Source of the DNA: Reclinomonas americana ATCC 50394
Taxonomy: Eukaryota
Direction: 5' to 3'
Assembly: GCA_048213135.1 (NCBI GenBank)
Contig: PS015623.1
Span: 1 to 43,586 of the forward strand
Length of the DNA: 43,586 bases
Part shown: one piece after another, positions 3,001-43,012 of the stretch
How the letters are laid out: every line of letters begins with the position of its first letter
Numbering within the stretch: position 1 is the first letter of the stretch
Position numbers and translations under genes: made by a program
Notes under the pieces: model-generated
Told to the model about the DNA's origin: nothing
Database searches by the model: none
What the model saw: the letters and a program-made list of their open reading frames with translations, nothing else

Positions 3001-5295
3001 GGGCATTGAGGATGTGTGGGTGCAGGACATGCATGCCGACTTGGCGCACATTGTCGTCAGCAGTTGGAACATTGGTGTCGAGGTAAGCGTGCTGTGTGTG
3101 AGGCCAGCATGTAGGTATGGCGTTTCACACACACCTCTTTGTGTGCAGGTGTGGACGTTGAGTTGCCGGGGCAGTGCGAGTGACGGCTACTCGTGGGGAT
3201 CAATAGAGTGTGAGCCGGTGCATCTGGTAGATACGGATCCAGAGACCACTCTGCTGGGCATCCTGTCCGATGCGGGTACGGTGGTCTTTGGGCAGTGGAC
3301 GCGCCCGTTTGAGAACCGGCGTATGACGCAGTCGCCGTTTGGATTGCACGTAGAGGTCCGTTGGGGGCATCTTACTCTCTCTCCTCTCTCTCGCACTCAC
3401 AGTGTGAAGAGCAGGAAGTGCCATTCGCACACGGGATTCTGCTCGGCATGGCGCGTCTGGGACGCACAGACTCGAGCGTGTGCGCGCAGTGGCTGACGCC
3501 GCGCACCTCCGAGTGTCTGCTGATTGCTGCACTGCTGCGATACATGGATCGGTTGGAGAAAGATCCGGCGGCCGACATGGATGAATTGCATCACGCTGCC
3601 GCTCTCTGTCGCCAGTTTCCGCATTTCCACGGTGAGCCGCGACCGTCCTTCTCTCTCTCATTCACACTTCCGTCGCTGAGTGGTGGGTGGTTCGTCCAGA
3701 TGTCACCGCCCATTGCATCCGCAAGTCCGAAATCGAGAGTCGCGAGTACCTGTATCGCGTGCTGGGCACGCATCTGGATCTGTTTCGGGTGTGTGCGGCT
3801 GCTCTCATTCTCCTCTTCCTACTTTTTTCAATCTGACCTCGCACGTGACAGGAATGTCTGGAGCGACGAGAACTGCATGCCAGTGTGTGTCACTTGTTGA
3901 TTCTGCGCGAGACAGAGGGTCTCACTTTTAGTCGCCGCATGGCGCTGCAACTCTTGCCGATTGCCATGGACTGCTTCCTGCAAGAGGAGTTGGCGCTGAC
4001 GAATGCACAAGAGACGCACCGACCGGCGACTGTGACTGCCACTTCTGTGCCATATGCACCACCGTCGCTCAANNNNNNNNNNNNNNNNNNNNTCGCGTGC
4101 AACAGCTGCTGGTGACGTCGGGTCGGTTGCTGCTGAGTGACGGTGTGTGGCGATGGTCGGCCTGGTTGCAATTGTGTCGTGCGTTCCCGCAGGAGCAGTA
4201 CGACTTGGTGGCGCGCACGTTGGCGTTGGACACGGAGCCGATGGCGTTGTCGTCCTTGTCGGCGGTGCAGACGCCCATGCCCGTCTCGCGACTGCGTGAG
4301 AACGGAGGAGTTGGGGAGGGGGGTTCACCGGTGCCGAAGATCTCAGTGTTTTCGGAGACCACCGACACTGGCGGTGCGTCGCATGTGTCGAGTGCCAGTG
4401 AGTTGGAGGAGTTGCTGCGACGCTCCGGCAGTTTCTCCGACTCGCTGCTCCTGTCGTGGTCGGAGCGGCGACTGCGCAGCCGGTGGCTGTCGGCCGACCT
4501 GCTGCTCGACGCCGTGCAGGCGGTGTTGGAGTCGTTCCCGTCGTTGGCGTTTGCGTTGACGGCACTGCACTGGCAGTCCGATCGGACGCAGCTTCACATT
4601 CCACCGCACTTGCAGGCCGCCGCGTCCGCACTGTCCAGCCCCGACGAGGCCAGTGCCGGCAGCAGTGCGGGCAGTTCGCGCCCGGGCACGCCGGATCCGG
4701 CCAGTCTGCTCAGCTCGAATCCCGACTTGGCGGGCATTGCCGGCTCGGCGGGAATGGCCGGCGGTGACGCGCCCTCGTGGCAACTCATCATGTGGCACCT
4801 GGAGGATCAGCAGCGCTTCGACTGGCTGCTCGTGTTTGGCGTCGCCACTGGCCAGGTCGAAGTGCTGCGCCAGTGCCTCGATGTGGTAGCAGAGACACTG
4901 GAAGACCGTCCGCCGGCCGTCGCCAGCTGGAGTCGCATGTCGCCTCCCGTAGCACGCTCCGACGGCAGCCCGTCGCCATGGCCAGCTCCCGGAGGAGCTC
5001 TGCTGCTGCCTAGACCACCGCTGGAGCTGATCCACGCGGTGCAGAACTTGGCCGTGCGATTCCTACAGCTGGCCGACGAGCCGGACGATCGCACTCGGCC
5101 TTCGCCCGCCCAGCGACTCGTCATGCACAGCGTCAAACTGCACGGGTTGCGTCCTTGTGTTCCCACTGCACGTTTTTTTCCTTTGGAAAGCTCACATACA
5201 GTTGTTGGGGCAGGCTACGCGACGTGCTGCAGGAGATCGCCACCCTCACGGCCGACTTGCCGAGCTCGGTCGCCGCTGTCCCGCCCGCTGAGTAA
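1..5295 (+). CDS. RIC1: RIC1 homologue (RAB6/Ypt6 GEF complex subunit), multi-exon, 5' end outside window
   Basis: Spliced translation gives YMEQNFPVT-CASVTLDGLWIVVAGRRG...RWRFFSEAAHERSF and FPHFHDVTAHCIRKSE...DLFRECLERRELHASVCHLLIL, matching the RIC1 beta-propeller and RIC1 domain motifs. About 16 GT-AG introns, a 20-N gap at 4073-4092, stop TAA 5293-5295. Confidence 0.85.
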
Positions 5296-5305
5296 AATCA
5301 TGCAT

Positions 5306-5315
5306 TTTCCCGCGC
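5306..5315 (+). promoter_or_regulatory. E2F-like element TTTCCCGCGC
   Basis: Matches the TTTSSCGC consensus, 25 nt upstream of ATG 5341. Identical 10-mer at 15276-15285. Confidence 0.35.
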
Positions 5316-5340
5316 ATTTTCAATCCACATTTTACTTCCG

Positions 5341-7271
5341 ATGAGCGGAGCACGAGCATCGCCCAACGCGCCCAAGAGCCACTCATCGCCCTCGCCAGCG
5401 CCTCCTGCGGCCTCCTCAGCAAAGCCGTCGGCCGCTCTGGACAACGCGTTTCGCGCCTTTTCGCAAATCCGACGCAGTGTGCGCGACTTGCAAGCAGGCT
5501 CGCTGCTGTTTCACTGGGACGCCAGTGGTCTCACGCCAAAGTTGCGCCTGTGTGTCTCCTTCTATGTGCGTGTGTGGGAGACAGAGAGTTTGAGTCGCCA
5601 TTTCCACTCACTTGTCACACACACACGCACACAGGTTCTTCTTGGTGAATCTCGAGCATCACTTGTTGTGTGTGTACGAGATTGAGCGCAACAAGCGACC
5701 AGATGGAACCTCGTCGTTCCCCTCATCGCTCGCTCGAGAGACACTGTCGTTGGAGTTTGAGGTGCCTCTGAGTTCCATTGTCAAGGTCATTGCGCTGGCG
5801 GAGCGCGATGAGAGCAAAGGGTGAGCGCACACACAGAGATAGACACACAGTCACACAGTGTCTCACTGTGTGTGCGTGACAGTCGTCGCGGCATTCCGAA
5901 TGATGATGAGGACGACGATGATTCGTATGGAGTGCCAAAGACTCCTGAGCAGATTGAGAAGCGCACGTTTGCGGTGGTGTTGCGTGATCGGCGGCACTTG
6001 ACGATTGTGTCGCCGAGTCGCGAGGACTTTAGGCGATGGTACTTTGGTCTCACGTTCTTGGCCAACATTGAGGTGCGTGGCTTGGTCGCGCAAAGACAAC
6101 TCGCGATCAGCACGGCTGATCGATGCCTCTCTTCACATGTACAGCCACTGGCGGAGGTGAATGTGACGTCGGAGTTGGCGGATCTGCTGGGCGATGAGGA
6201 TAATGTGCGGGGACTGGCGATGCGACAGCAGAATGCCGAGCGGCAGCAGCGCAGGGCCTCGGTCGACAAGAAGGCGGCGGCGGGTGGTCGGCCACTGCAC
6301 CGACAAGCGGTGCGCGTGTGTGTGTGCATGTGTGAATGTCGTTGGTGTGTGGACGTGCTGGCGCTGACGATGGCTGGTGAGCAGAGCGAGGGCGACGATC
6401 TCGGGAGCGGATTGGTCGGTGGTGTGCTCGAGGGTGGCGTGGACAGCGAGAGTGGCGCAGACAGTGCTGTGTACGGTAGTGGCGAGGAGGATGAGGAGGA
6501 GTTTGAGGACGATACGGAAGACTTGCCGGCGTCGGGGCGCGGAAGTGCCAGCCAGGTGCGTTCTCTTCACACTGTTGCTTTGTTATTGTTGATTTGCTCA
6601 CTCCCCGCACAGAGTGGTGCTCCGTCAGTGGCATGGTCGACGCTGACGCAGACTGGCTCCGACACCACGTCGCAGCGTGGCCGCGAGGTGCTGGAATTCG
6701 ACAATGAAGAGGAGGCCGACGACGACGACGACGAGGGTGAGACGGCGGCGGAGCGCGCCGCACGTGATCGGCAGCTGTCGCTGTCGTTGCAGCGGAATCG
6801 CGACCAGGCAGCGCTCATCGAGGCGCTGGCCGAGGAGAACAAACTGCTCGTGGCCATTCGGGACGAGAAGACGAATGTGATCAACAAGCTGCTGGAGCAG
6901 ATTGACATTCTCAAGGACGCCCTGTCGACCTCCATGACGCTGCAGCGCACGCACGAGGAGGAGCTCGATCGCAGACGAGAGGAGAACGAGAAGCTGATGG
7001 TGCTGCTGAGCGCGGCGCGCAGCGGTGCATCATCGTCACCGCAAGTCAAGCAACATCAGCGGCATTTGGTCGGCGAAATCGATCGACTCAATGAGGTGTG
7101 TGAGGGAGAGGAGAGGGAGGGAGGAAAGTTATATGATGTGCACGCGCGTGTGCTGACTGTGTGTGTGTGTTTGTGCAGATTGTCAAGGCCAAGGAGGAGA
7201 CCATTCAGTCGCTGGTGAAGCTGCTGAAGGACAACCGTGTGCCATTCTCACCCTCCAAGATCCGCTCATAG
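5341..7271 (+). CDS. PH-domain (PLC/Num1-like PH) protein with acidic linker and C-terminal coiled coil, 7 exons
   Basis: LQAGSLLFHWDASGLTPK|FFLVN...TFAVVLRDRRHLTIVSPSREDFRRWYFGL fits the PH beta-sandwich and its C-terminal helix Trp. Heptad-rich LIEALAEENKLL...LLEQIDILKDAL follows. Stop TAG 7269-7271. Confidence 0.7.
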
Positions 7272-7393
7272 TGCGTACGCGCTGCTTGTGTTGTTGTTGG
7301 TTTTTCTCTCGGTGCGAATGATATGGTGCAAGGACAATGCGTGTAGTGAAGATGATGGATAGTTACATTTTCATTGAACAACAACAACAACAC

Positions 7394-9198
7394 TCAGTGG
7401 AAAACAAACGCTGTGCCGGGCTTGGTGGGCGTGGTGGTGGCGGTGATTGATGATGACACGCCGCTGCCACTTGCACCAGACTCCTGCTTGAAAATGGAGC
7501 GCACGGGTGGTGTGGCCTTGTCGTCGGCGAACGAGCGACGCGGTCGCACCATTTCTCGCGGCGGGGCACAGAAGCTGTAGAAGCTGCTGACGCGCTCGCC
7601 TCGCATCTCGCGCTCCAGCAGCTCGTCGCGCTTGCTCTTGTCGTACGAGTCGCCGAGGCGCAGCAGCACGCCCTGCAGATCGACAGTGTACTGTGCGTCG
7701 GGCAGAGCGTGCAGTCGGGTGGCGATTTGGTCGCCCAGCAGCTGTGCACGCACGCAGCGAGAGAGAAGTGAGTGGAGAGGAGTCGACCGGGGCGAAGGTG
7801 ATGTGTTCTCACTCACCAAGTAGGATCCACTGGGGACGCCGGCCACGCAGCCGGTGACGTTCCACAGCTGCCAGCGATTGGGGTGCGTGTCGACTTTGGT
7901 CTCCTTCCACACCACCTCGGTGGCGAGGAGACCGCCACTGGAGAATGGCGCGTCGTAATAGTTCCACGAGTGATCCACACCCACGCCCTTGCCCTTGTAG
8001 CTGCGCCCGGTGGCACTGGACTGCCGGCCATTGGACTGTCGCTCGCTCTTGGCCTGTTCGCGCGCCGCGCGCAGACGAAGAGCGTGATCGCGGTTCTCCT
8101 CGCGATCCCGCAGGCACAGGCGCAGCAACTGTGCGCCGTCGGCAATGCCCGTCCACCGCCCCTGATCCCAGTCGTAGGCCCCTGTGGCACCAAGAGTGTG
8201 AGGATTGCATCCGTGGCATGCATGGCACTGGCCACGAACGCACCCTGCCACTTGTCGCCCGACATGCGGAACCGGCCAGTGGGGTCCACGTCGAAGCGCG
8301 CCACAAACTTCCAGTACCAGCGCGATCCATCGACGACATCACCGCGGCGGTCGACCTGAGACTTTTTGCGTGTGGACCACGCCACGGGGATCTCGTAGGC
8401 CAGCGCCCCGACTGCGCACATGTCAGCAAGGGAGGGAGAGGAAAAAGGGAGTGAACAGCGCAACTGTCGGCCACCGCAGACTGCGACGACTCCAGGCTGC
8501 TCTTGATCAGCACATCGGCGTCGTCGACAGGAGCGCTGCTGTGGGTGCGGCCGTGCGGAGTGCGCATCTCGTCGACCAGCTGCATCACTGGCGTCGGCAC
8601 CGCATGCGCAGCGGCGGACACCGCCGCCGGCTGCATCCACGCATCATAAGAAACACATACATACATGTGCGCAGGCAGAGAGACGCACCACATCCACGGC
8701 CGTGTTGGCGCGCTTCATCGCCGGTGCCTCCTCGTCGACATCGACTTGGGCGGGTCGTTTCATGCCGCGACCGTTGCTCACCAGCACCACACGCAGGCGC
8801 CGCACGTCACCGTCACCCTGCACACCACACTCGGCCAGTGTGCGCGCACGTGTGCGCTCGTCAGGGTCCACCAGCAGCTCGTCATTGAGCAGCATCTGTT
8901 GCACGCGAGAGAATGCGCCCTCAGGAATGCTGGTCATGATTTGTGTCAACTGTGTGTGTGTGTGTGGGTGGAGTGTGGTGAGACACACGTGTGTGAGAGA
9001 AGAAGAAGAGGGAGAGGAGCGCACCAGTGCACCAAGAGTTGTCGCGCCAGTGAGCCCCACACACTCCACTCGTGTGTGTGGAGCAATGTGCATGCCCACC
9101 ACGTCCACCACAACAGCAAACTTGACGCTCTGCGCGACATGTGAGCGAGCGAGAATTAAAACCACAAATAGCACGTGCAACGTGTCGCACGCAACCAT
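7394..9198 (-). CDS. Hypothetical protein with N-terminal ubiquitin-like (beta-grasp) domain and an unrecognised Trp-rich C-terminal domain
   Basis: ATG at 9198 is followed immediately by an intron. Spliced SVKFAVVVDVVG...TTLGALLTQIM...QQMLLNDELL...ARTLAECGVQGDGDVRRLRVVL resembles UBL (TL..xGI-type motif). Downstream exons join in frame at GT-AG sites to the stop at 7394. Confidence 0.6.
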
Positions 9199-9326: not shown

Positions 9327-12159
9327 ATGGGGGGCTGTTGTTCTCGCTGTTGCGGGGCATGCTGGGTTCGTTTTGCGTGCCGACATGATGACGCATGAGT
9401 GAGAAAAGGAGTCATGACGCACTCACTTTGACTGCGTTTGCGTGTTGTTCCGCAGAGGAAAGTATGCGGCAAGCGTGATCCCGATGATGGTGTGTGTGTG
9501 CGNNNNNNNNNNNNNNNNNNNNNNNNNNNNNNNNNNNNNNNNNNNNNNNNNNNNNNNNNNNNNNNNNNNNNNNNNNNNNNNNNNNNNNNNNNNNNNNNNN
9601 NNNNNNNNNNNNNNNNNNNNNNNNNNNNNNNNNNNNNNNNNNNNNNNNNNNNNNNNNNNNNNNNNNNNNNNNNNNNNNNNNNNNNNNNNNNNNNNNNNNN
9701 NNNNNNNNNNNNNNNNNNNNNNNNNNNNNNNNNNNNNNNNNNNNNNNNNNNNNNNNNNNNNNNNNNNNNNNNNNNNNNNNNNNNNNNNNNNNNNNNNNNN
9801 NNNNNNNNNNNNNNNNNNNNNNNNNNNNNNNNNNNNNNNNNNNNNNNNNNNNNNNNNNNNNNNNNNNNNNNNNNNNNNNNNNNNNNNNNNNNNNNNNNNN
9901 NNNNNNNNNNNNNNNNNNNNNNNNNNNNNNNNNNNNNNNNNNNNNNNNNNNNNNNNNNNNNNNNNNNNNNNNNNNNNNNNNNNNNNNNNNNNNNNNNNNN
10001 NNNNNNNNNNNNNNNNNNNNNNNNNNNNNNNNNNNNNNNNNNNNNNNNNNNNNNNNNNNNNNNNNNNNNNNNNNNNNNNNNNNNNNNNNNNNNNNNNNNN
10101 NNNNNNNNNNNNNNNNNNNNNNNNNNNNNNNNNNNNTCTCTTGTGTGCAGCTTGCCAAACTGAAACTGCGTGTGTGTGTGTTGTTGGAAATGTCGCGCAG
10201 TGTTCGCGTACAGGTGAGCGTCTGTGCATGCAGCAGCAGTCTACGAGGGATGAGCTCTCTCTCACACACACGCGCTTGCAACACAGCACCTTCAAGATCG
10301 TGCTCATCCGCGATCGCTACCTCGGCATTTTGCATTACTCGCTGCTGGCGGCGATTATAATCTACGTGGTCGGCATTCAGATTGTGCTCTTTGAGCAGTA
10401 CCGCAAGGAGGAGTCGCCGGTCGGTGTGGTGCGACTCAGTCTGCGAAGAGTTGAGTGTGTCGGGGTGCTCCCTCCTTCCTTTCCCTTGGTGCCTGACTCC
10501 ATGATTGATGGACAGCCGTACTTGCCGCCGGGTTGTGGCGATACACCACGGCCGCCATGCACGCAAATCAAGATTGTTCCTGCTGATCAGTTACCATACT
10601 GTACAGCGTCTTCCGACTCGTATCCAGCCCCCAAGTTACCGGTGCGTCGGCGATCTCTCTCACTTCTCCTCCTCTTTCTCTTTCCGCGATAGCTCACCAA
10701 TGTCAATCGCAGTGCATCTATTGGGATGAGAGCGACGTGCAGTACCCACCAGTGGAGCAGTCGGCCATCTTTGCGACCTCGCGTGTGGTGCAGGATCATC
10801 AGCTGCTCAACTGTCAGCTGACGGATCCCAGTTGCTCGTACACCTCGGTTGCGAAGGACAACCTCATGGCCTATGTGGCACAAGTGATGGAGTTTACGGT
10901 GAGGTCACCTCGGTGCGCAAGTCTGTGTGTTGTCTCTTGCACTGACCCGTCCTCGTCACTGCCTCAGCTGCGTGTCATTCCTCGTGCACGCGCGCCCACT
11001 GTGGGCGTCGTGGGCGACACCACCAATCTGCAAGGGTCTGTCTCTTTGTCTTTTTTCCTCAGCCTTGGTGTCTGGTTCGCTCAACTCCCCACAATCCATA
11101 GATATTTGATGAAGCGACCCTGCAACACTTGTTTGGGCCCGAACGACTGGGTGGTGGCTGAAAAGTTCACCAATCCCGTGCTCGGCGATGTCATGGAGCT
11201 CGACAAGATGCTGGAGTATGCCGGTCACTTTTCCATGGATGACATGTGTTGCGTGCCCGCATTCTGGCACTCTCTCTCTCTCTCTCTCTCGCCTGAGTAC
11301 TTGTTCCTCACTTGTGCGCAGCCTACACAAACAAGACGGTGACGAATCGATGGGACGGTCTCGTGGTAATGGTCGAGCTGGTGTTCTCCAACAAGGGCAC
11401 TGGTGGCAAGTTGCGCGCCGACGGGAGATGTTGACGAGCTGGTGACCAACATCCTCCTTGATGCTCACCCGCAACAATGTGTGCACACAGAGTCCGCTAC
11501 GAGTACCGACCGGTGGTGCTGCCGTACACCGATTTCAAGATCACGCAGATCATCTACAACGTGTACCCGAACGATCGTGTGGTTCTCAATCGACACGGTC
11601 TGCGTCTCATCTTTTTGATCACGGGAGCGCTCGGCAGCTTCAACTTTACGGTGCTGCTGATTCAGCTGACCACGTCTTTGGCGCTGTTGAAGGTGGGAGA
11701 ACACCTCGCCTGTCCTTGCTCGGTGTCGATCATGCTGACTTTTGTGTACTGATGCAGGTGGCTGCTGTAGTAGTCGACCTGCTCGCCACGCGCTGCCTGC
11801 CTGCACGCAAGCACTACCGCAGCTACAAGTTTGAGGAAACGGTCGACTTTTCCGACCTACGCAAGCTGGAGGAGGAGCGCCGTCGACGCATGGAGGAGGA
11901 GGACACTGTGGATCCGTATCAAGTCAGTCAGCCGAACCCGTTCGCGCCAGTCACCGAGACCCAGGATCGGGAGAATCGGCCGCTGCTGGCACCGCGGACA
12001 ACTGGCGCAGCTGCGCCCACCGTCAACCCCAATGGCCTCATCCGCTCGCAGTACATGCCCTACGAGGCCACGTTGCGTTTGTCAGCGCTATTGATTCACT
12101 TTCCTGTCCCGGAACTGACCTGCTCCTCCTCCCCGCACAGACCATATTCAAGAACATAA
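9327..12159 (+). CDS. P2X: P2X purinoceptor-family ATP-gated cation channel (Dictyostelium/protist type)
   Basis: Spliced: MGGCCSRCCGACW|RKVCGKRDPDD|VFAYS|TFKIVLIRDRYLGILHYSLLAAIIIYVVG (YxTxK plus TM1), CIYWDESDVQYP, RWDGLVV, RHGLRLIFLITGALGSFNF-TM2 (...VVVDLL), C-terminal YxxxK (YRSYK). The N-gap 9503-10136 lies inside intron 2. Confidence 0.92.
9503..10136. other. Assembly gap (N run) within P2X intron 2
   Basis: N run flanked by TG and TC microsatellites. Other gaps at 4073-4092, 20648-21231 and 26057-26833. Confidence 0.99.
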
Positions 12160-12225
12160 GGACACAGTTCGCCAGTACATACCCCCGAATTGCATTAACA
12201 GTTTGCTCTTGGAGACGATTTCCTT

Positions 12226-15200
12226 TCATGGACGATTGCGCATGTAGGCCTGGAACATGTGGTTCTCGACGAACCGCAGCAGCTGGTTGTAGGCATAGAC
12301 GCACTTGCGGAAGCGCTCTTTCTCCAGTCGTATTGCCTCGCGCTCCATGAGCTTGATCTGCAACCCGTCGACCACATGAGCACGAGTGGGGGAAAGGTAG
12401 GTGTGTGCGGTGATGCGTAACTTCGCGAGCGTTCTCGGCCGCCGCCTTTTGAGCCATGGCGATTTCGGCACGGCGCCGAGACACCAGACGTGCTTTGGCC
12501 TGCATGATGAGAAGCATGATGAGCACGCGATGGCGAAGACCACAACAGCACAGTGACGCTTGTGCGTCCACTCACCGCCCTCTGCGCATCCTCCACCGCC
12601 CCCTCGTCCATTTTCAGAACAATCAGCGGCTCGCTGATGATTCCCTCGTCGGCACCCAGCGTCGGCATCTGCAGTGGCGCTGTTTCTGCCTTTGGTGGTT
12701 TCGGTCTGACACGCTTCGGCGTCGGAGCATCGTTGTCCTTGTCGGCCGGCGGTGGCGGTGGCGGCGGTGAAGGCTGTGATTGTACGCGCGTCCGTTTCGG
12801 TGCAGCCGACTGTGACTGCGGCTGCACTGGTGCCGATGGTTGTGGTGCTGGCGGTGGTGCTCGTGGTGGTGGCGTTGGATTGCGCGGTTTGGGTGCCGCT
12901 GGTCGACGCACCACCTTCTCCGCTCCGCCACCTCCGTCTCCCTCGTCGATGCTGGAGCGCAGCGGCATCGCCTTCCGCATCTGCAGACGTCGCTCTTCCA
13001 GCACGGCAGCCCGATACGCCTCCTCTTCGTCCTCGTACTTGGGCTTGGTTCGCGACCGACGAAGTTTCGGCATGGATGCCGTCGTCGTCGCTGTGGTCGC
13101 TGTGGTCGCCGACACAGTCTCCGACGCCGTCTCCAGACGCTGCTCTGGCTCGTTGTCGACCGCGTCGCTGGTCTCACTTCCCATGGCCAACTTGCGCACT
13201 GCACGCGCTGCTTGACGCGCCTCTCGTGGCGCCGAGCGACGGGGCTGTACCGTTTCTCGATGATTAGTCGCCGGCAGGTGTGTGACATGAACGTCTATCA
13301 ACATCCGCTCACCTCACTGGCCGTGGCGCTCAACGAGGGAGCGGGAGTCGACACTGGACTGCTCGGCTGCGACGTGGAGGAGACAGCGCGACGTGGCACA
13401 GTCGGCACTGGCGGCTTGCGGGCGGCTGGGAAAGGTGCAGGCTCGGTGATTGCCTCGATCGGCTTGGAGCCAACGGGCGCATGGGTGAGTGCTGCGGCTG
13501 GCAATGGCGGCTTGCGTGGAGGCGGGATCGACTCCTGCACCGGTGCAGCGCGGCGAACCACACGGATGCGCAGCTTGCGGCGTTTTGCGGGTGACTCTTC
13601 CTCGGACTCGGTCTCCGACTGCGATGCCTCGGTTGATGTGGCAGCGGCTGCTGCAGCCACCGCCGCAGCCTCCTCGGCTCTGCGTCGGCAACAAGCGCGT
13701 CAGTGACACCGTCGGTAGGTGCAACACAAGAATGATATGCAACTGCTGCCGTTGCAAGCGAGCCTGTCGCCGACGTGTGCGGGCGGCAAACGCACGAGCA
13801 CGCCGTCGTGCCTCTTGTTTCTGCGCTCACTCATTAATCGATTGGATACAGGCAGGAGGTGGAGTGCATTCGACGACGAGAACGCAACTGCAATGCGCTG
13901 CTGCTTCTGCTCCAGAATGTCGCGAAACACATTGCGCGGCTGCAGTTCGATTTTCTTGACAAACGATGTCGGTCCGAACAGACCCTCGCCCACACCGGCC
14001 TACGCAGGCACACAACAACGAGGATGAGCAAACTGGCGGAACACATTGGTGGGAACACAGCGCCCAGACGCAACAGTGCGCGCATTGAACGACATGCGGG
14101 CGGCGCGTGGCAGCGAACCGAGAGTGACACCTGGTGCCGGAGCCGCGGCCGTGACAACCGGCGCATGCATGGCAAACAGTGTCGCGTCCACCTCCGTATC
14201 GTCCGAGGAGCTCGACTCCTCGCTGCCTTCGTACTCATCACTCTCATCGTCATCGTCGTCGTCGTCGTCGTCATCAACGTTGTCTACGACCGGCTCTTCC
14301 TCTCCCTCAAAGTCTTCCGTCCCCTCCTCGTTGTCGCGGTCCACGCTGGAACTCATCGATCTCCTGTGATTGGTGAATCCAGAAGTTGGCTTGGACGCCA
14401 TCGTCGTCGTCGTCGTTGTGGTGGTGGTGGTCGCCATCACACCGCCGCGCACCGCAGCAGCACTGCTCGGGCGCGAATACACGGTCATTGTTGGCAGTGG
14501 CGCCGGCACATCCTCGCCCACCTGCTCCGCATCCACCAGCAGCGACTCGCCATGCAGCAACGGGCGCAGTCGCCCAGCCGACGCACCGCGCGCCAATCCC
14601 GCTGAGCCCGGCCGCGGTCGCCTGCCCGCACCAACCTCCACAGCAATGCGCCGCTGCAAGGCCGCCTCGGTCGCCGCGTACAACTCACGCACATCAGCAC
14701 CACTCGCCAGTCGCACAATCGGCGCCTCGCCTGCTGCCACTGGCGGTGGTGGAGGAGGAGGCAGTGGAGGCGGTGGAGGAGGCGGCTGACGACGCGGCAA
14801 CATCACCGCATCCGTATTGCTGCGAAACAGCGCCGCACGCGCAGTCGACATTGATGCGCCTCCACCGCTGCACACCACAGTCAGAGCGCGCACACACGCA
14901 CAAGCTCACGTCGACAATAGCAGACCTCACAGTGGAGGGAGCCTCAGCCTGCAGCTGTCCATGGCTCAACGATCGCGGCCGCTGCATTTCACACTGTCAC
15001 ACACTTACACACGCATGCATACACTCGCATTCAAGGCACACGCAACAGCAGGACCTCCAGCCGCCAGCAACTGCGCCATGATATCACTGGCCATGAGCGC
15101 TGCAGGTCGCGCGCTCAGTCGCTGCTGCTGGCGCTGTTGATGCAGCTGCTGTCGCGCGTGTAGGAGACCACTGATGCCCACGCTGTCGCTCATGGTGAAC

Positions 15201-29800: not shown

Positions 29801-31511
29801 GTGTTGCTGCCCATGGAGCGCGCAGCCTGCATAATGACGTCTTGTGCCTTGGCCGGCGGCAACTTGGTGTTCACCTTTGGCCTCTTCAGCTTCTCCGGCA
29901 ACTTGACCGTCTCCACAGCCTTGACTTGCAGGAACCACCACGTGCCGTCCATGTCTGCAAAGCGATGGTGAGTTTCCCCTGAGGGAAGAAAGAGAAAGAA
30001 GTATTTGCACGCACCACGACAGAAATCACACGCAAGGCGCGTCACTTGCTGGCCCTTGATGCAGCGATTAATCTGCTGCGCCACCTCTGCGGTCATGGCG
30101 GAGGCCTCGTCCAACGAACCGCCAGTCACGCGGAAAATCGTGATGCTGCCGGGCACATCCACGGTGGTAGTGTAGCGCTTGCGAAGATCCTTCTCCTCGG
30201 CAAAGTCGAACTTCATCTGCGCACGATGGTGTGGTGAGCATCAATCGACACCGCCCAGAGCGTCAGTCGAAAACACACGCAACTCGATTGGTGATGCACC
30301 ACCCGAATGGTGCACGATCGGTGCTCCAGTCGATGCGTGTGATGCACGCCTTGGGGCCGCGTGGCCTCACGTACCGCTGAATCACATACTGTCCCGACGG
30401 CGCATTCTCCATTGTGTTCTTCAGCTCACGCGCACTGAGCAAGGACAACTCGTTGCCGGCACCAGCCGCAAACCCAGGCTGCAGCACAGAGAGGAGCGAG
30501 TTAGCGCAAGCCTCGAGGCTACACATGCACTGCGTGAGACACCCAACTCGTTTGATGACGGCCACGATCGACTCGTCGGTGATGTCGGGACCAATGCAGA
30601 TCTTCTTGACAATCGAGTCGGCGGTGACGTTGTCCACTCTGCGCACGCACGTGTAAGACAGAGTGTCCATGCGTGCGTGTCTCCACAGTGACTCACCGAT
30701 AGAGGAACCCATCTCGCCCCGTAAAAAACCACACGGGCGTCTCCTCCACGCCAAACACAATCGTGTCGGGAACACGCACTCGGATCAACCCGCGCGACAC
30801 GGAGTTATTGCCCTCGAGCTCTCCACGCGGTCGCGGCACCAACGCCGCCATCAACATTACACCAGTCAGCGGGCACAGTGACTCAGTCGCCATGGCCTAC
30901 ACATGAGAAGCATGTGAGAGACGGTGTGTGCGAGTAACACGAGGAAAAGAGCAAAATAACATACCACAAAGGTGGCAGCGTCGAGCAGCGCCTGCTGCTT
31001 CTTCTTCTCCACCTGCGCAGAGAACTTCTTGCGTGCATTGATGCGCTCCAGCTCACTGCAACACACACTCGCGCATGAGTCAAACACCCCTCTCACTCAC
31101 ACTCACTCGTGTTGACGCAACACAGCCTCGATCTTCTTGTAAATGTCGCCCTCCAGCTCGTCCTTGGCGTGTGCGTCGCCTGTCGCTTGCCCAATCTGCG
31201 AGTGCCAGAGTGTGAGTCAGACAGTCAGTGCGTGTGTGTCAGTCACACACGCAGGCACTGACCGGCACTGAGTGGAGGCCAATGACTCCATCGACCTTCT
31301 CATACTTGGTGGCAGCAGCTCCGCGGCCGGCGGAGAGAGAGCGCGGAGCTGGTCCGCGTCGCTCGGCACTGCTGCTGCGACCTGAAGAATACACAAGACA
31401 AGAGAAAGAGAGGAGAAGTGAGCATGCGTGTGCAGAGAGAGGGAGGAGAGAGAGGCGTGTGGTTGGTGCTGCGTGGCGCGCACCTGCACTGCCGCTGCGA
31501 GGTCCGCTCAT
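26862..31511 (-). CDS. Large multi-exon uncharacterised protein with ATP-grasp-like region and C2-like beta-rich regions; 3' end in gap
   Basis: In-frame spliced exons include VPDTIVF...WFFTGRDG, YVIQRYVRPRGPKACITRIDW, LACDFCR|DMDGTWWFLQVKA, CKSC and YLPPIDYFYAEPLPDEWIDLLP. Exon joins near 27550-27950 are uncertain. Confidence 0.6.
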
Positions 31512-32538: not shown

Positions 32539-35500
32539 ATGAGTGGTGCCACGCATGACAACAGTGACGACAGCAGCGACGGTGGTGGAGAAGACTCTTC
32601 GGGCGCGCCCCCTTCACTCCCCACAGCAGCTGCCCGCGGATCCGGAGGCCGAAGTATGTCACGCGTTGTGTGTTTCTCTTTTCGAATCTCCTTTCGCATC
32701 TTCTTCCTCACTTGTCCGACAGGCACAGCTGCAGGCTCCACTCTTCTTGCTCCCAGCACTCCACTGTCACACTCTGCCGTGATGCCCGAGTTCACCAGTG
32801 TGGTGAGTGGTGACTGCTGCACTGGGTGTCTCTGTGTGTCGTGGCGCCCCCCTATTCGCGCCACCAGTGCGCAAAAGTTGTCGGTTGAGAAACTTATTTT
32901 TGGGCTGCGACTGCTGCACCTCTCCTCTCCGCCCATGTTGCTGCACAGGAGGTGGAATACATCGAACCGCGCTCACCTACCGACATCAAGGCTGCCAGCG
33001 GCACCTCCACCGTCCAACGCACTGCTGTGCCAATCGATGAGCTCGGTCGTGGAGCCGGTCCGCTGCGCTCACGCTCCCGCAGCGGCAGTCTGAGTTCGGG
33101 CACCTCGACCGGCAGCGGCTCGCCCTTGCTGCAAGCTATCAATCCGTTTGGAGCCAGCTACGCCACGGCGACTGCACCCAATGTATTCGCCGAGCTGCGG
33201 CAGGCGATTTCACTGGAACTGCGTGAGTACGACCCCGGTGTCGTGGCTCGGCAGACCTCAGTGCGCTTGACACCGGAGGAGCGCCTCAGTGTGGCTCGCT
33301 GCGCTGGCATTGTTGCGTTGTCTGTTTGTACCCACAGCGCAGTGTACATGTACCTGATACTGTTTTCTTGTCGCAGCAAGAGCACTTGTTGTCGGTATTG
33401 GCCGTGGCCGAGAAATACGGCACGCGCATTTCTCGTGATCGGGCTGACATCCAGGTGCGCTGCATTCGTGCTTTTCCTTCGCAATACTCGTGTTCTGATG
33501 GCGTATGCAGGGCTTGACCTCTGCTGAGGCCACCAATCGCCTCGCCGCCAATGGTCCGAATCTGCTTACACCGCCCAAGCGAATCCACCCACTGTTGCGC
33601 CTTCTCCGTCTCTGCTGCACGCCAATCACTAGCTTCGAATTCTCTTGCTGTGGCTCACTGCTGTGCACGCAGGGTGTCGTTCCTCAAGTGCTGCACCGAT
33701 TTGTTCAACCTGCTGCTGCTCGGTGCCGCCGTCATCAGCTTCCTGTTGATCATCACAGATCCAGGCCTGTCGGACAACGTTTCGCCTCCCGCCTGTGATC
33801 TGCAAGTTCTCGTTGCACTGAACTTGCGAATTACTACTGCTGCAGTACATTCTCGGTGGCCTGCTGGTGTTTGTGGTGCTTTTCAATGCCACCATTGACT
33901 TTGTGCAACGCCGCAAATCGGAGCGCATCCTCGCTGGCTTTGCCAACATGCTGCCGCCCGAGGCGACCGTAGTTCGCAACGGCGAACAGCAGCGTGTGCC
34001 TGCGGCGGGACTCGTCACTGGTGATGTGGTCATGGTGCGCCCGGGCGATAAGGTTCCGGCCGACATGCGCGTGATTGCCACTCGCGGTCTGAAAGTTCGC
34101 CGTGTGTCTTCCTCTTCTTTTTCCGTAGGACTTCGTTGTTGCGCTAACCTACAGAGTGCGCGGATCAGGTGGATCACTCGTCGCTCACGGGCGAAGCTGA
34201 GCTGCAGACCCGCACAATTGTGACCATGACCGAGGTCAATCCACTGGAGGCGAAGAACATTCTGTTCTACGGCACCAATGTGGTGATGGGAGAGGGTGAA
34301 GGTGAGTCATCAGCCATCGTGTACCTGCTGTTCTTCTCCTTCACTATTGTATGCTAATCGTCACTTGTTGTGCAGGCATCGTGATTCGCACTGGTGACAA
34401 TACCGTACTCGGCAACATCAACAAGACAGTGTCGTCGGAGAAAGTGCGCTCGTCGCCAATGACACGGGTATGCAGCGCAGCAGAGTGCATGCACATCTCA
34501 TGCCATCATCGTACCATGTAGACTGTATCTGTATGCTGACAAGTGTTGTGCGGCCGGTGCAGGAAATCCACTCCCTGGTAATCAAGATCGGCATCATTGC
34601 TGGCATTGTCGCTGTTGTCTTTTTCATCATCGGCATCTTGCTCAGTGAGTAGTGCTTTGAATCCAACAGTTGTTGCACTGCACTGATTCAGCTGCATTGC
34701 AGAGTATTCGATTTCTGTGAACTTCCTCTTCTGTGTCGGCATCATTGTGGCATTGTTGCGTCTCTAGTCTCTAGATCTCTATTCTGCAACAGTGTGTGGC
34801 CATCCTCCTCCGTGACTCATTGTTGTGCTTTCATGCAGCCTGCCGCAGGGACTGCCCTCCACTGTAATCGTTCAGTCTTTGTGTGCCACATATCCCTTCA
34901 CCACCGCCACCACCACTGATTACCGCCATCGCAGATGTTGCTGACCATTGCCGCCGCCAACATGGCCAAGAAGAATGTGTTGGTGAAGAGCCTGCATGCT
35001 GTCGACACCCTCGGTGAGATCAATCAGAAGAGTGTTGCTAGACTTGTCACTGCTGACATGTGTGCATCCTCTCCACCACACAGGTGCCGTGACACTGCTG
35101 GCCTCCGACAAGACTGGTAAATGCGTGTGAAGAGTGGTAATGCGTCTCAGCGGCAAGCTCATCCACTGCTGGCAGGCACACTGACGCAGAATCGCATGAC
35201 CGTTGTCAATGCGTGGATCGACAATACAATATACCGCGTTGTCCCTCCTGGACTGGAGGCGCCGCCTGGCGCTGTCCACATCTTCAGTCGCGAGTCGCCG
35301 AGCTCCGTGACGTTGCTGGAGGCCGCTCTGCTTTGCAATCGGTGAGTGCTGACGACCATCGATGGCGAGTCAGAAAATTGCTGACTGTTGTTGCAATTTC
35401 ATGGCGGCAGTGCTCGTTGGGCACCAGTGGCGGACAGTGACGTGTCTGCTGTAGGTGGTATTCGCGAGCGTGCCATCCTCGGTGATGCAACAGACACCGG

Positions 35501-38203
35501 TCTCTTCCGCTTTGCCATCAACAACATGGAGTCGGAGGCCGAGGAACTGGAGGTGCTGCTCTGCATTCATCTTCAGTGATCGCATTGGTGACAATGTCGG
35601 TTTCATCGCTGACTCTCTGTTGTGCAGATACAACGTCGGTGCAAGCGTATCTTCGAGGTGCCATTCAGCTCGGAGACCAAGACGCACCTCATCATTGTGG
35701 ATCGTGTTGACGACGGACGCCTGTTGATTATCAAGGTCGGTGCTCATTAGCTGTCCAGCAGCAATCAGTGCTGCCGCTATCCTAACACTCATGTACGCAT
35801 GCATGCAGGGAGCTCCCGAGCGTGTTCTTCGACGCTGCTCTCGCGCTCGTTTCAACGGCGGAGCAGAAGTTGACTTGGACGATGCAGTGGCGGAAAATTT
35901 TGATCGTGCCTATCGCAACATGGCGAACCAGGGCCAGCGTGTTCTGGCGTTCGCCGTGTTGCAGCTGACGGGCGAGATGGCGTCGGCGGACTATCAGTTC
36001 ACTCTTGACCCGCCGAACTACCCCGAGGTGAGTGGTCACTGCTTTTCCATCTGTGGAGACTGGAGAATGAGTCTGACTGAAAACATTGGTGTGTTCCACA
36101 GGATTCCTACGTGTTCCTTGGCCTTATCGGACTGGAAGTGAGTTACCTGGTTATCAAGGCACTTGCGCACTCGATCTCTCACACGACTGCACAGGACCCA
36201 CCCAAGCCAGGCGTCGCGGCCGCAGTGGAGACTGTTGCGTTGTCAACAGACACAATGCATCAGTCATTGTCCAACCTCTGCGCTCATTTAGTTTCCCACG
36301 CGCAGTGCCGTCGTGCCGGCATCCGCGTCATGATGGTGACTGGCGACCATCCGCTCACGGCGGAGGCCATTGGTCGCCAGGTCGGCATCATTCGCGGTTT
36401 GAAGCGAGAGGACGTGGCACGCACTCGCAACGTACCGGAGGAAGAGGTCCCCGAAGATGGCTACGACGCCGTGGTCATTCACGGCGACAAGATCGACACG
36501 CTCACCGACCACACCTGGCACAGTATCCTCAGCAAGTCGGAGGTCATCTTTGCCCGGTAAGTGCGAACACGAACAAACATAATTGTTTCCAGTTTTTTCT
36601 CACACCTGCTTGTGTGCAGAACGTCGCCGGCGCACAAGCTGGAGATTGTCAAGCGTGCGCAGGAGTGGGGCCATGTGGTTGGCGTCACTGGCGATGGTGT
36701 GAACGACTCACCAGCACTGAAAAAGGCCGACCTCGGCATCTCCATGGGCATCTCGGGCAGCGATGTGTCGAAGGAGGCCGCATCCATGATCCTCATGGAC
36801 GATAACTTTGCCACGGTGACCTTTGGCATTGCGGAAGGTAACGGAACTGCTGACGCGTACACCTACATGTTTGCGTGCATGCATGCACCGACACAAGCGT
36901 ACACACGCAGGTCGCCTCATTTTCGAGAACCTGAAAAAGTCGATCAACTACACGCTGACCCACATCATCCCTGAGCTCATCGCCTTCCTCCTCTTCATCG
37001 CGTTTGCTCTTCCGCTTCCACTGTCGTCCTTGCTGGTGCTGTTCATCGATCTCGGCTCCGAATTGTGCCCAGGTCTGTATTCATAATGATTGCAGTCGAT
37101 TGTCGTGTGTTCGCTTACAGTTGACACTCGCGTGTGCAGCTCTGTCGTTTGCCTTTGAGCCGCCGGAGGGCGAACTGATGATCAAGTGCGTTTGGATACT
37201 GTACACATGTGGCTAATGTCTTGTATCATTCCTCATCCAAGTATACCACCACCACCAGGCTGCCTCGCCGTCGAGTGGTGCCGCCGCCGGCGCCAGCGAG
37301 AGTGATCGAGCCTGGACGCTCGTTTGACGTCGAAGGTGGCCATCCCTCGGGAGGCTCTCCTGCCCTGCGTGCTGCAGGTGGTGGCGTGCAGCCGGCGCCC
37401 CCACCGCTCGTGGTGTTGTCGCGCATGGCCAGCTATCAGGCGCCACCCACGTTGCCAAAAATCGATCCGGTCGACATGCGATCCAGCGACGAGCGGCTGG
37501 TGGACACCAAGCTGCTGATCAACGCGTACTTGCAGATTGGCTTGTTCGAGACGCTCGGTTGTCTGGTGGTGTACTTTGTCGTGTTCTGGATTCACGGCAT
37601 CACGTCGGTCAAGGCGCTGTTCTTCACCGCCCAAGACTACTTTGCGACCACCACGACGCTTGACTTTGTGTTTGAGGATCGCTCTTACGTTGCGCAGCCT
37701 TGCTGTTGCTCATCATGCGAACTGTATCATGCATGATCAGTCTCGATTCCACTCACCGTCGTTGATGTTAACAGTCTCCCGACGAGCAGCGCTGGATTCT
37801 GGCCTCGGCACAGTCGGCATACTACTTGACCCTCATCATGATGCAGTGGGCCAACATGTTTCTCTGCAAGGCGCGCTACGGCACCATCTCGCGTTCGGCA
37901 TTCAAGTGAGTCTTCTTCACACACTTCCCACAAGCCTGATAACAAGCGCGTTTCCTCATTTCCCTTCACTCGCACAGGAACCGCATGACGTACATCGGCA
38001 TTGTCGTGTCCATTATTGTGGGCGTCATCATCGTGTACATGCCAGGCATCCAGCTGGTGGTCAAGTCGCAAATCGTATTCCCGCCGGTGCTCATCGGTTG
38101 CCTTCCGGTCATGGCAGTCATGATTTTGTACGATCAAGTCCGCAAGTGGGTCGTCGTTCGCACGGGCATTCGCGGGTGTGCTGCCGAGTACTGGAGCTGG
38201 TGA
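32539..38203 (+). CDS. P-type ATPase alpha subunit, type IIC-like (Na+,K+/H+,K+ related), about 26 exons
   Basis: GLTSAEA...[104 protein letters not shown]. Ends AEYWSW*. Confidence 0.95.
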
Positions 38204-38433
38204 CCTGCTGTCAAGCATGCTCTCTTGTGCTCCACTCGAGAGTCTTCTTCTGTTTTCTGTATCCATGTTCTTCACCTCCCCTACATACGCGCTCGATCTG
38301 CTCGATCAACGCCATTGAAGTGCGAAGCGCCTTGCTGACATGCATCAACCACCTACACACATCACCTGGCTTCACGTAAACAATGTGTTGTGGCTCTAAA
38401 TTGCTCATGCAGTCGCGTTTGCGCCTGCTTGCG

Positions 38434-39862: not shown

Positions 39863-39897
<35 letters not shown>

Positions 39898-39942
39898 TTG
39901 CAGAGGTGGCGGAGGTGGATGTCGAGAGGGCTTGTTCCCCAT
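38434..39942 (-). CDS. WD40-repeat protein with N-terminal MG motif, poly-Pro/poly-Gln
   Basis: TASHDGCVCVLD, SLRVWD, SGSEDHMLRWW, GRISVWS and GHKMPVSG...SCAEDGSIRVWN repeats. CAG run at 39861-39893. Confidence 0.88.
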
Positions 39943-40303
39943 CCACGCCCGCGGGCCACGCGCAAAAAAAAGATGTTATGTTTGCTGCGTTCTTGTCCCA
40001 CAGAAATGCAAAGGCATTGTCGGCGTACATGAGAACGCGACAGGAGACTCACTGCACAGATGTCTCCTGGTCGGCTTGGGTGACGACAGCGTCGTGCGCG
40101 GGAATGCGAGACAGGCGACGTCGACACCTTCGCGATGGATATCAGACTGAATTGACGCACCACTCGCACCCACTTGCACCAACTGCCTTTCGCCTGATTA
40201 CAGTACCCAACACTGCTGCGTGGCAGGTACCGAAACATCGTGAATCAAAACACGACATGACGACCGGACGAACACAGGCCAACACACATCTTTACACTCC
40301 TCC

Positions 40304-43012
40304 ATGGAGCCACGGCGACGACCATTGGACATCGCGCCCGATCCTGATGTGGACGACGATGCCACCGCAGAGGAAGCCGCGTGCATGCGAGTGCCCAGCG
40401 TTCGCGGCTCGTGGGACTTGATTGGCGGAACTCCCCATCCTACACCCACTGAGGAAGGGGATGCGGATTCAGAAGACGAGGAGGCGCATGGGAGCTCCTC
40501 TCTGCGCGCTTCTCTCTCCGCCCCCGTGCACCGCTCCTCCCCTCCTGCGTGGTCGCCGTCCGCCTCCACCGCCACCGCAGTGGCGGCCGCCTCAGAGGCC
40601 GGCTTGGAGCTGCTGCCACCGCCACCAGTGCCCGGTGTGGTGCTGGAGGCGTACCAGGAGCAGAAGGGCCCGACGCACTACAACGTGGCGACGTCGAGTC
40701 GCGAGCGCGCAGCGGCGCAGATCAATGGCGTTCAAGAGTATGTTGTGTTGCCGCACCACACGCCAGGTGAGTGTGTGAGATTGTTCGGGCACTTTTTTCT
40801 GGCAGCGACTTGCATTGACGAGTGCGCGTGCTTGTGTAGCGTGGCCGCGCATCGACGAGTTGCTAAGCAGAACCATCACGGATGAGGCTGGCCTGCGTGT
40901 GCGTGCTGTGTGCTGCGTGTATCTTGTCCGCCGGGTTCCATTGGTCAATATCTCTCTCTTTGTGTTGTGGCAGGCGTTTTACCGTGAGCTGGATCCATCG
41001 TTGGCCTATGTGGGCGAGACGCTTGCCGAGTTTGTGAGCACGCAGATGACGGAGGAGGTTAGTGGCGTGTGTGCGTGTGTGTTCGGTGTCGTGTGTGAGC
41101 GACTGTGCGTGACCACTCTTCCTGTCGTCGGCTTCTGCCAGGAACGTGAAACCTTCTATCATGGTACACTGAAGAGCATGATGGATTACGCGCAAGGCGG
41201 TCCGCTTCTCCTCCCGGCACACTTGCCGGTGCTGAGCATTGGGCGTGGTGCGATTGGCTGTTCCGTTGCAATGCTTCTTCCGCCCCCTCGCTCACTCGAT
41301 TTGCCTGGGCGACGCAGATGTGGCCGTGACCATCTCGCAGCATCAGGCCGCCTGTCTGGTGGCACAAATGGTGTTGTGTATCGCCAAGTTCGGGGACGTG
41401 CATCTGACAACATCGACTCGATATCCGAATTCTGGCATGCCAAGCCGCACGTTTGAGCGTCTCTTTGGTGGTGCGTGATGCATGTGACACTCCGATCGGG
41501 AACAAGAGAAAGAGACCGCGAGTTTGGTTCGCTCACTGTGCTTTGTGCGTATGTGTGGCAGACGAGCTTCGCGGGTCGCGCGCTGGAAAGCTGCGTTGCC
41601 TGTTCAACTACTTTCTCCGCATCGTGGATCACGGTTGCGTTTGTTTGTTCTCTCTCTCACACACACATACGCCGACAACTCCCACTTAAGAACTCACCCT
41701 GTTGTCCGCCACTTCTCAGTGTCCACCGGCAATCTCACATTCCACCGTCACGTGCTGCGTCCGGACGACGTTGTTGACTGGACTGCGTGTGAGACGCCAA
41801 TGTTGCCAATGTGTGCCGTTTCTGATAGTATCGCGATCGAGGACTGCGAGCCTCCATGTCTGATGTGCGACTTTGCGAACCGCTACATTGGCGGTGGCGT
41901 GACTGGCGGGGTGCGTAAGAATGAGTGCTCTCACCCCACTTTTTGCGTTAAAGTAACTGTGGCGATTGCAGGGTTCCGTACAAGAGGAGATCACGTTTGT
42001 CATCAAGCCGGAGCTGCTTGTTGCGCTGTTGCTTGCGCCCACAATGCAGGAGAACGAGACGATCACAATGGTGTGCTTGATTGTCGCAGCACGCGTGTGC
42101 GTGTCTGAGAGAGTGCTGCTCACTTGCGCATATGACAGTATGGCGCCGAGCGCTACTCAAAATACCGCGGCTACGCGGCATCGTTTGAGTTTGCCGGCGA
42201 TTTTGTGGACCCGGATGTGGGGACGTGAGTTATTCTTTCCGATATGCATCATGTCTTCTTGTGCGTCTGCGGGTTCTGAGCGATCGATACACACAGCGAT
42301 GCGTGCGGTCGTCGTCGCAGCTGGGTGGTGGCCATGGACGCATCGATGAATGCCCGAGGCAGTACGGCACAGTTCCGCTACAAGAATATTCTTCGCGATC
42401 TCAACAAGGCCTACTGTGCCTTCCGCGTCGACCGATTGTTGGACACTGACGATCGGTTGACAGCCATTGCCACTGGCAACTGGGGCACCGGTGTATTTGG
42501 TGGCGACAAGGATCTCCGTTGTTTGCAGCAGTGGATGGCGGCGTCTGTCGCAGCTCGTCACGTTGCGTGTTTGTGTGTCTCATATGCATGTTTCAGTCTA
42601 TTGGCAAGCAACTGATGTGCATGTGTGCAGCTGCGGTTCTGCACGTTTGGCGATCGCAGCCTGGCACTGCGTGTCGCCGAACTCGACCACGTGCTGCGCA
42701 CCACCGAGGTCCACGTCAGCGTCAGTTGCGTGGCCATCTTGCTGTCTCGGTGCACTGCCACACGTCGGATTCTCTCTCTCTCTCTCACACACACATACGC
42801 CCGCAGTGGAGGTTATTCGGTATCTGCACGACTACAAGGACTACCTCAAGCACTTTACCAAGGAGGCGGACAGGCGGTCTGTGAAGCTGACCGAGGAGAT
42901 GATGGAGGAGCACTACGGAAAGCACTTTTGCCCGGCAGTCGAGTACGTACGTCGGCGCATTACTGGACAGGCACTGTACACTGGCAACCCCAGTCGCTGC
43001 AGCACCATGTGA
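40304..43012 (+). CDS. PARG: Poly(ADP-ribose) glycohydrolase (canonical macrodomain PARG)
   Basis: DFANRYIGGGVTGG|GSVQEEI (GGG-x-QEE catalytic loop), GAERYSKYRGY, VVAMDA, RDLNKAY, ATGNWGTGVFGGD...QWMAAS. Confidence 0.95.

Follow-up and report, generated by a model that had tools for sequence, protein, structure and literature searches.

Can a spliceosome routinely use donors whose conserved G lies one base further into the intron than usual? The question is raised by a 43,586-nt stretch of Reclinomonas americana ATCC 50394 DNA (contig PS015623.1, positions 1 to 43,586; hereafter the window), in which an initial annotation had proposed that many introns begin with GTTGCG, usually GTTGCGT, beside ordinary donors such as GTGCGT and GTGAG. 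We addressed it with the window DNA, homologous proteins and the literature; all junctions given here are predictions from these sources. GTTGCG(T) appears to start about one in five introns of the window, and its use as a donor is confirmed as far as homology and reading frames show. We put at roughly 0.5 the probability that these introns form a second donor class, read by U1 in a register shifted by +1, in which the C at +5 has a non-standard partner.

GTTGCG donors in conserved genes and across the window

Donor positions were obtained from homology using a protein-to-DNA spliced aligner written here, which required only GT/GC..AG and applied no donor scoring. Homologues of three predicted proteins were aligned: 15 of a P-type ATPase, 16 of a P2X receptor, and 11 of PARG. 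For the ATPase, 22 introns received the votes of at least 12 of the 15 homologues, and the spliced product is a clean P-type ATPase. All 15 homologues selected each of three GTTGCG donors (33594, 34755, and 36234), as well as the donors at 33779 (GTTTCGC), 34095 (GTTCGCC), and 34870 (GTTCAGT); the other donors of this gene are GTGAGT, GTGCGY, GTAAGT and similar sequences. In P2X, votes went to 11248 (9/16), 11410 (5/16), and the GTTGAGT donor at 10450 (4/16), and the closest homologue (P0148, score 944) picked all three, each with a gapless junction. PARG donor 42562 was selected by 5 of 11 homologues.

These alignments bear on the proposal that the reading frames of P2X, the ATPase, and PARG fix cleavage at the GT. 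They support it for the donors at 33594, 34755, 36234, 34870, 10450, 11248, 11410, and 42562. Two others are ambiguous: 5 of 15 homologues chose 37689 while 7 preferred 37668, a GT in the same phase, and 41634, with 3 of 11, tied with in-phase alternatives at 41637 and 41643. Donors 33312 (0/15), 42725 (0/11, in a weakly conserved region), and 12072 (0/16, in an unconserved tail) received no homologue votes. Across the 34 introns supported by homology, G was the most frequent base at +3 (17 introns), followed by T (10), A (4), and C (3), and six donors read GTTGCG. Removal of the introns at these six sites, and at four other sites with T at +3 (+3T), restored a conserved, gap-free protein.

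Window-wide frequencies come from a gene parse of 15 strand-assigned regions, which combined codon usage, an acceptor and branch model, and a two-class donor model whose sole training set was the 34 homology-supported introns; ab initio parses that used codon usage only were discarded, as they chained across genes and strands. The trained parse yielded 130 introns and long open products. GTTGCG was its commonest donor hexamer (27/130), ahead of GTGAGT (14) and GTGCGT (12), and 46 of the 130 introns carried T at +3; in genes outside the training set the corresponding counts were 16/88 and 29/88. The parse included 25 of the 27 GTTGCG sites of the initial annotation, missing 24717 and 26861, the latter of which runs into an N gap. 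Because the trained donor model knows the T class, we ran the parse a second time, giving every donor the same score. GTTGCG was again the top hexamer in this donor-blind parse (13/144), with 12 of the 13 falling among the 27 sites first annotated, and the motif was absent from the antisense control (0/56).

Retention of the parsed GTTGCG introns would produce a frame shift or an in-frame stop in 25 of 27 cases. The intron at 9130..9195 is a multiple of three without a stop, so that frame alone does not force its splicing. The proposal that these donors mark a major intron class was borne out, at 6 of 34 homology-supported and 27 of 130 parsed introns.

Consensus of the class and its proposed pairing with U1

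The conserved G had been proposed to move from +5 to +6 in this class. Counts in both the homology set and the parse agree, and the T that follows the G also lies one base further on. Among the 34 homology-supported introns, G at +5 was found in 1 of 10 +3T donors compared with 21 of 24 ordinary ones, and G at +6 in 9 of 10 compared with 3 of 24. In the full parse, 37 of the 46 +3T donors had G at +6, and 74% of the GTTGCG set had U at +7. G at −1 preceded none of the 10 +3T introns but 19 of the 24 ordinary introns of the homology set (p=2.3e-5); the full parse gave 9/46 for the +3T class (4/27 for GTTGCG donors) and 72/84 for ordinary donors. The suggestion that these are simply ordinary donors with an extra T was not upheld: GAG and GCG occur in a ratio of 24:19 at +3..+5 of ordinary donors, whereas the ratio at +4..+6 of the T class is 2:27 (p=1.5e-5), and in the homology set the two ratios are 10:4 and 1:6 (p=0.024). 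At +4, ordinary donors carry A in 45% and C in 31% of cases. Other +3T donors (GTTGAG, GTTCAG, GTTTCG, and GTTCGC) account for 19 of the 46 members of the +3T class.

GTTGCG introns have a median length of 74 nt (range 53-143 nt), compared with 69 nt for ordinary introns, and do not differ from them in branch or acceptor. All 27 start with GT; 26 end in CAG and one in TAG. A CTNAY branch motif is present in 22 of the 27, at a median of 19 nt from the 3′ end, and in 67 of 84 ordinary introns, at a median of 18 nt. Phases were distributed 10/8/9 in the class and 47/21/16 among ordinary introns, a difference that is not significant. Judged by their sequence, the GTTGCG introns are genuine U2-type GT-AG spliceosomal introns.

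From the donors we infer both a pairing register and the nature of the small nuclear RNA (snRNA) involved. N|GUUGCG(U) would be a second abundant 5′ splice site class, cleaved at the GU, which U1, and probably later U6, would read in a register one base into the intron. In this register G+1 would replace the −1G of ordinary donors, U+3 would replace U+2, and G+6 and U+7 would replace G+5 and U+6; when G|GUGCGU and |GUUGCGU are lined up against U1, only the base facing U1 C8 differs between them. The C at +5 would most likely be paired by a G at U1 position 5 (an ACGUAC-type 5′ end), or else might reflect another factor favoring C at +4, the corresponding position in ordinary donors. The fuller proposal, in which two donor grammars coexist, one-fifth to one-third of introns are N|GUUGCGU and are recognized via the +1 register or a second U1 specificity, and this is made possible by a non-standard U1 whose 5′ end places G opposite the C, is tentative, and we rate it somewhat below an even chance.

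Several observations weigh against this shifted-register reading. For 17 of the 27 sites first annotated, ab initio parsing is the sole support, and the donor model of the trained parse already contained the T class. One sense-strand GTTGCGT, at 5979-5985 (+), appears to be ordinary coding sequence and is spliced in no parse; the motif alone is therefore not sufficient for splicing. G precedes non-donor copies of GTTGCG as rarely as it precedes the donors (4/28), so that −1G in the class is not enriched, rather than depleted, and a fully shifted helix would call for an A/C consensus at exon positions −1 and −2, of which the T class gives no clear sign. RNAduplex with the standard U1 5′ end gave a mean of −1.3 kcal/mol for GTTGCG donors compared with −6.7 kcal/mol for ordinary donors, and it placed only 12 of the 27 in the +1 register alone, or 14 with the inclusion of two that use both this and the canonical register. 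Standard U1 also pairs better with GTTGAGT than with GTTGCGT, and so A would be favored over C at +5. Conversely, a G5-type U1 acting as the sole U1 does not predict the preference of ordinary donors for A over C at +4.

The initial annotation had supposed a spliceosome that tolerates a bulged or shifted register. A shift indeed fits better than a bulge, since −1G is not enriched, while tolerance by a standard U1 is not sustained by so weak a mean duplex energy. The near-obligatory C at +5 calls for a pairing partner beyond standard U1. With an ACGUAC-type U1, carrying G at position 5, RNAduplex placed 25 of the 27 GTTGCG donors in the +1 register (21 wholly and four together with the canonical register), with a mean of −5.7 kcal/mol, close to the −7.4 kcal/mol of ordinary donors. 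Because C at +4 is found with a standard U1 in Thecamonas and the Mamiellales (see below), a cause of the C other than U1 is also possible.

An unlikely alternative is that a second type of U1 gene, complementary to GUUGCGU, reads the class in the normal register beside a standard-type U1. Such a U1 would account for the rigid seven-position consensus, in which T commonly occupies +7 and 21 of the 27 annotated sites are exact copies of the 7-mer GTTGCGT, and for the obligatory C at +5, which standard U1 leaves unexplained; co-evolution of U1 with +3U donors has a precedent in the account of Roy and Bowser (2022, 10.1101/2022.06.08.495308). The other +3T donors, however, mirror ordinary donors plus one base, for which a shift is the simpler explanation. 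Rfam at its gathering threshold gave 0 matches within the window, the only sequence searched, and hence no snRNA there. Nor do we know of an organism in which U2-type introns are served by two U1 specificities, both functional; this too counts against a variant U1.

Somewhat less probable again is a bulged register, in which U+3 or U+2 is looped out and −1, +1, and +2 pair as usual, so that the human "bulge +2/+3" arrangement would be scaled up. G and U would likewise be displaced by +1, and human cells are described as providing validated examples of single-nucleotide bulge registers (Tan et al. 2016, PMC4856993). A bulge would nevertheless keep the −1:C9 pair, and −1G should then be enriched as it is in ordinary donors; as that signal is missing from both GTTGCG and +3T donors, a shift is favored over a looped-out U. 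Combined canonical and shifted solutions were rare in RNAduplex (2 of 27 donors with standard U1, and 4 when the G5 variant was used), and the human bulge classes reported in that paper comprise tens of sites out of 201,541.

A further concern is that the class could be an artefact of annotation, with ordinary GTs close by acting as the true donors and GTTGCG being no more than a frequent word of introns or coding sequence. All 27 coordinates first listed (15 plus, 12 minus) do carry GTTGCG, and most have a CTCAC/CTGAC-like motif and a CAG 50-110 nt downstream. Two variants listed with them, 13743 (GTTGCAT) and 12421 (GTTACGC), are minus-strand donors; the plus strand has no GT at either coordinate. 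Whether the motif exceeds expectation from composition depended on its length: the hexamer GTTGCG was not clearly enriched (55 in the window compared with 44±6 in shuffled sequences, 6 of 100 of which reached 55), whereas the 7-mer GTTGCGT was (26 compared with 11.3±3.4, with 0 of 100 shuffles reaching 26). The lack of overall hexamer enrichment would suit an artefact, as would the in-phase alternative GTs at 37689, 41634, 5541, 31121, and 34755. Against it stands the strand bias of the motif. Thirteen gene regions were assigned a strand, eight of them by Pfam matches on single open reading frames (ORFs), and the donor-blind parse confirmed every assignment, its scores there exceeding those of the opposite strand by 3- to more than 100-fold. 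Relative to the gene strand, GTTGCGT occurred 24 times in sense and once in antisense (11:1 where Pfam had set the strand and 13:0 elsewhere). Its asymmetry ranked second among 1100 tested 7-mers, the only more asymmetric word being the CT microsatellite of intron pyrimidine tracts. With the agreement of all 15 homologues at three ATPase sites, the gapless P2X junctions, and the prominence of the hexamer in the donor-blind parse and its absence from the antisense control, the artefact explanation is largely refuted, and we give it very little weight. Just as improbable is a burst of mobile introner-like elements ending in GTTGCGT: the rigid terminal motif, the lack of an exon-side consensus, and the even (not significantly so) phase distribution would suit it, but the internal sequences of these introns resemble one another no more closely than do those of ordinary introns (mean local score 8.6 compared with 8.1, with similar 95th percentiles), and pairs drawn from the two classes score alike, so that they are not copies of a mobile element, and their branch and acceptor signals are those of ordinary introns.

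Comparison with known donor systems

Proof that 5′ splice sites can be read in a shifted register comes from human cells (Roca and Krainer 2009, as described in Tan et al. 2016, PMC4856993), where, by the latter account, all validated non-canonical registers together make up about 1.5% of 201,541 sites. The class in the window resembles the human shifted sites described there in its predicted cleavage at GU, in the proposed pairing of U1 one position further into the intron, in a −1 base that need not be G (the paper's example is ACA/GUCAAGUAU), and in G at +6 and U at +7. Unlike them, it spans 6/34 to 27/130 of introns (10/34 to 46/130 for all +3T donors), and its consensus carries a C that mismatches standard U1.

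Changes of U1 itself are described by Roy and Bowser (2022, bioRxiv 10.1101/2022.06.08.495308), who report GUUUGU donors with a co-evolved U1 (5′-AACAAAC-3′) in Entamoeba and GUGCGC donors with an ACGUAC U1 in Mastigamoeba. From these systems come the features of U as a normal donor base at +3, a +4 C matched by a G in U1, and the idea of U1-donor co-evolution, all of which are shared with our interpretation of the window; however, each is described as having one transformed consensus and few to moderate introns, whereas the window has two classes and a very high intron density. The same preprint describes strict GYGCGY donors in the Mamiellales and a preference for C at +4 in Thecamonas trahens, both with a standard U1. 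These share with the window class a GCG core after the GU and a C opposite U1 position 5 for which, in that account, no compensation is known, but they are described with no extra U at +3 and with the conserved G still at +5. Already known, as far as these sources go, are non-canonical U1 registers at about 1.5% of human sites and +3U donors as the single consensus of Entamoeba.

U12-type introns have an RTATCCTT donor and a TCCTTAAC-like branch site. We rejected a U12-type identity for the GTTGCG introns because their donor is not RTATCCTT and their branch and acceptor match those of the ordinary class. Both are second classes with a rigid donor motif independent of exon bases, but U12-type introns amount to under 1% and the window class to tens of percent. 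A split between donors reliant on the exon side and donors reliant on the intron side also recalls the two 5′ splice site classes defined by LUC7 proteins (Kenny et al., bioRxiv 10.1101/2022.12.07.519539); as described, both of those keep the normal register, unlike the class in the window. A 2024 survey (PMC11347168) notes many "non-canonical" introns in some protist annotations, which it leaves unexplained. A motif-based literature search turned up no report of a GTTGCG donor class among the papers listed, as judged by titles and the beginnings of abstracts.

If the proposal of two coexisting donor grammars is true, the genome would be the first to have a major intron class, and not about 1% of sites, defined by a non-canonical U1 register or by a second U1 specificity. 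Until now, cleavage at a GU that is out of register with U1 pairing has been a matter of rare human sites. Where the shifted-consensus donor is the commonest, a genome would offer a natural system for asking what sets the register (U1, U6, U1-C, or LUC7), as well as for studying U1-donor co-evolution and the coexistence of two donor grammars. In such a genome, a gene finder that has learned its donors from sites with G at +5 would wrongly annotate roughly one intron in five or more.

Intron coordinates, gene content and neighboring features

Predicted and candidate introns of the GTTGCG type, together with other homology-supported +3T introns, in window coordinates
Feature	Positions	Strand	Support and remarks
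GTTGCGT intron, 68 nt, phase 2	5146..5213	+	trained and donor-blind parses
GTTGCGC intron, 94 nt	5541..5634	+	trained parse only; donor-blind parse chose in-phase GT 5550
GTTGCGC intron, 53 nt	8412..8464	-	trained and donor-blind parses
GTTGCGT intron, 66 nt, right after ATG	9130..9195	-	both parses; stop-free multiple of 3
GTTGAGT intron, P2X	10450..10515	+	4/16 homologues and P0148
GTTGCGT intron, P2X	11248..11321	+	9/16 homologues and P0148; donor-blind parse
GTTGCGC intron, P2X	11410..11490	+	5/16 homologues and P0148; donor-blind parse
GTTGCGT candidate donor, P2X C-terminal tail	12072..12201	+	trained parse only; acceptor 12140 or 12201
GTTGCGT donor 13888 with candidate acceptor 13746	13746..13888	-	trained parse; GTTGCAT donor 13743 adjoins
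GTTGCGT intron, 75 nt	14000..14074	-	both parses; in-frame stop if retained
GTTGCGT intron, 65 nt	14982..15046	-	trained parse
GTTGCGA intron, 83 nt	17452..17534	+	trained parse
GTTGCGT intron, 81 nt	19553..19633	+	both parses
GTTGCGG intron, Nop14	24122..24184	-	both parses; contiguous Pfam profile; absent from initial annotation
GTTGCGT candidate donor	24712..24717	-	motif only, in neither final parse; purine-rich downstream
GTTGCGT candidate donor	26856..26861	-	motif; intron would run into N gap
GTTGCGT intron, 73 nt	27170..27242	-	trained parse
GTTGCGT intron, 74 nt	27742..27815	-	trained parse
GTTGCGT intron, 79 nt	28680..28758	-	trained parse
GTTGCGT intron, 73 nt	29294..29366	-	trained parse
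GTTGCGT intron, 67 nt	30217..30283	-	trained parse and an earlier donor-blind run
GTTGCGT intron candidate	31056..31121	-	trained parse; ambiguous, in-phase GTGAGT 31106 alternative; absent from initial annotation
GTTGCGT intron candidate, ATPase N-terminus	33312..33376	+	trained parse; 0/15 homologues
GTTGCGC intron, ATPase	33594..33672	+	15/15 homologues
GTTTCGC intron, ATPase	33779..33845	+	15/15 homologues
GTTCGCC intron, ATPase	34095..34168	+	15/15 homologues
GTTGCGT intron, ATPase	34755..34838	+	15/15 homologues
GTTCAGT intron, ATPase	34870..34934	+	15/15 homologues
GTTGCGT intron, ATPase	36234..36305	+	15/15 homologues
GTTGCGC intron, ATPase, donor ambiguous	37689..37774	+	5/15 homologues; both parses
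GTTGCGT intron, PARG, donor ambiguous	41634..41719	+	3/11 homologues; both parses
GTTGCGT intron, PARG	42562..42630	+	5/11 homologues; trained parse
GTTGCGT intron, PARG C-terminal part	42725..42806	+	both parses; 0/11 homologues

The window is about 58% G+C and contains four N gaps, leaving about 41.6 kb of non-N sequence. Of the 471 ORFs with 60 aa or more, a Pfam scan covered 450 (the remaining 21 all lie beyond position 41738) and identified RIC1, the P2X receptor, a GT17 glycosyltransferase, the P-type ATPase, and PARG on the plus strand, and an ankyrin protein, Nop14, and a WD40 protein on the minus strand. The ORFs flanking the intron at 24122..24184 match the Pfam Nop14 profile up to position 106 and from position 107, respectively. 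G+C content at third codon positions (GC3) did not separate coding ORFs from other ORFs in the window.

Intron density is very high and the introns are very short, with about 130 predicted in the non-N sequence at a median of about 70 nt. This is unlike the figures given for Mastigamoeba balamuthi, 3.4 introns per gene and introns of 137 nt (PMC8136499). CAG ends 123 of the 130 predicted introns, and a CTNAY branch motif lies about 18-19 nt upstream. The P-type ATPase gene (33100-38203, plus strand) alone has 22-24 introns. Its product is Na/K-ATPase-alpha-like, and its nearest named relatives are a transcript of Diphylleia rotans, the closest at 67% over one exon, and early-diverging fungi. 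A metagenome scan with an ATPase exon gave a best identity of 58% among the 80 loci kept, and spliced alignment of the first 30 of these 80 revealed neither a close relative nor any GTTGCG donor.

On the minus strand, 26835-31511 holds a predicted gene with 23 introns and about 1,100 codons; no ORF of at least 60 aa in it matched Pfam. T occurs at +3 in 12 of its 23 donors, the highest share among the genes of the window. Near the 3′ end of Nop14, at 21284-21323 (minus strand), a GTTGCGT is followed 40 nt later by a CAG acceptor and could mark a 40-nt intron. Such an intron would be below the 45-nt minimum of the parse, which instead chose an in-phase GTTGAAT 24 nt upstream. At 19393 (plus strand), an intron-like GTTGCAT...CCCCAG segment stands just before a possible ATG and may be an intron in the 5′ untranslated region of a P-loop gene. 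CT and CA microsatellites in the window are mostly intronic on the sense strand, with CTCTCTC occurring 61 times in sense and 18 times in antisense.

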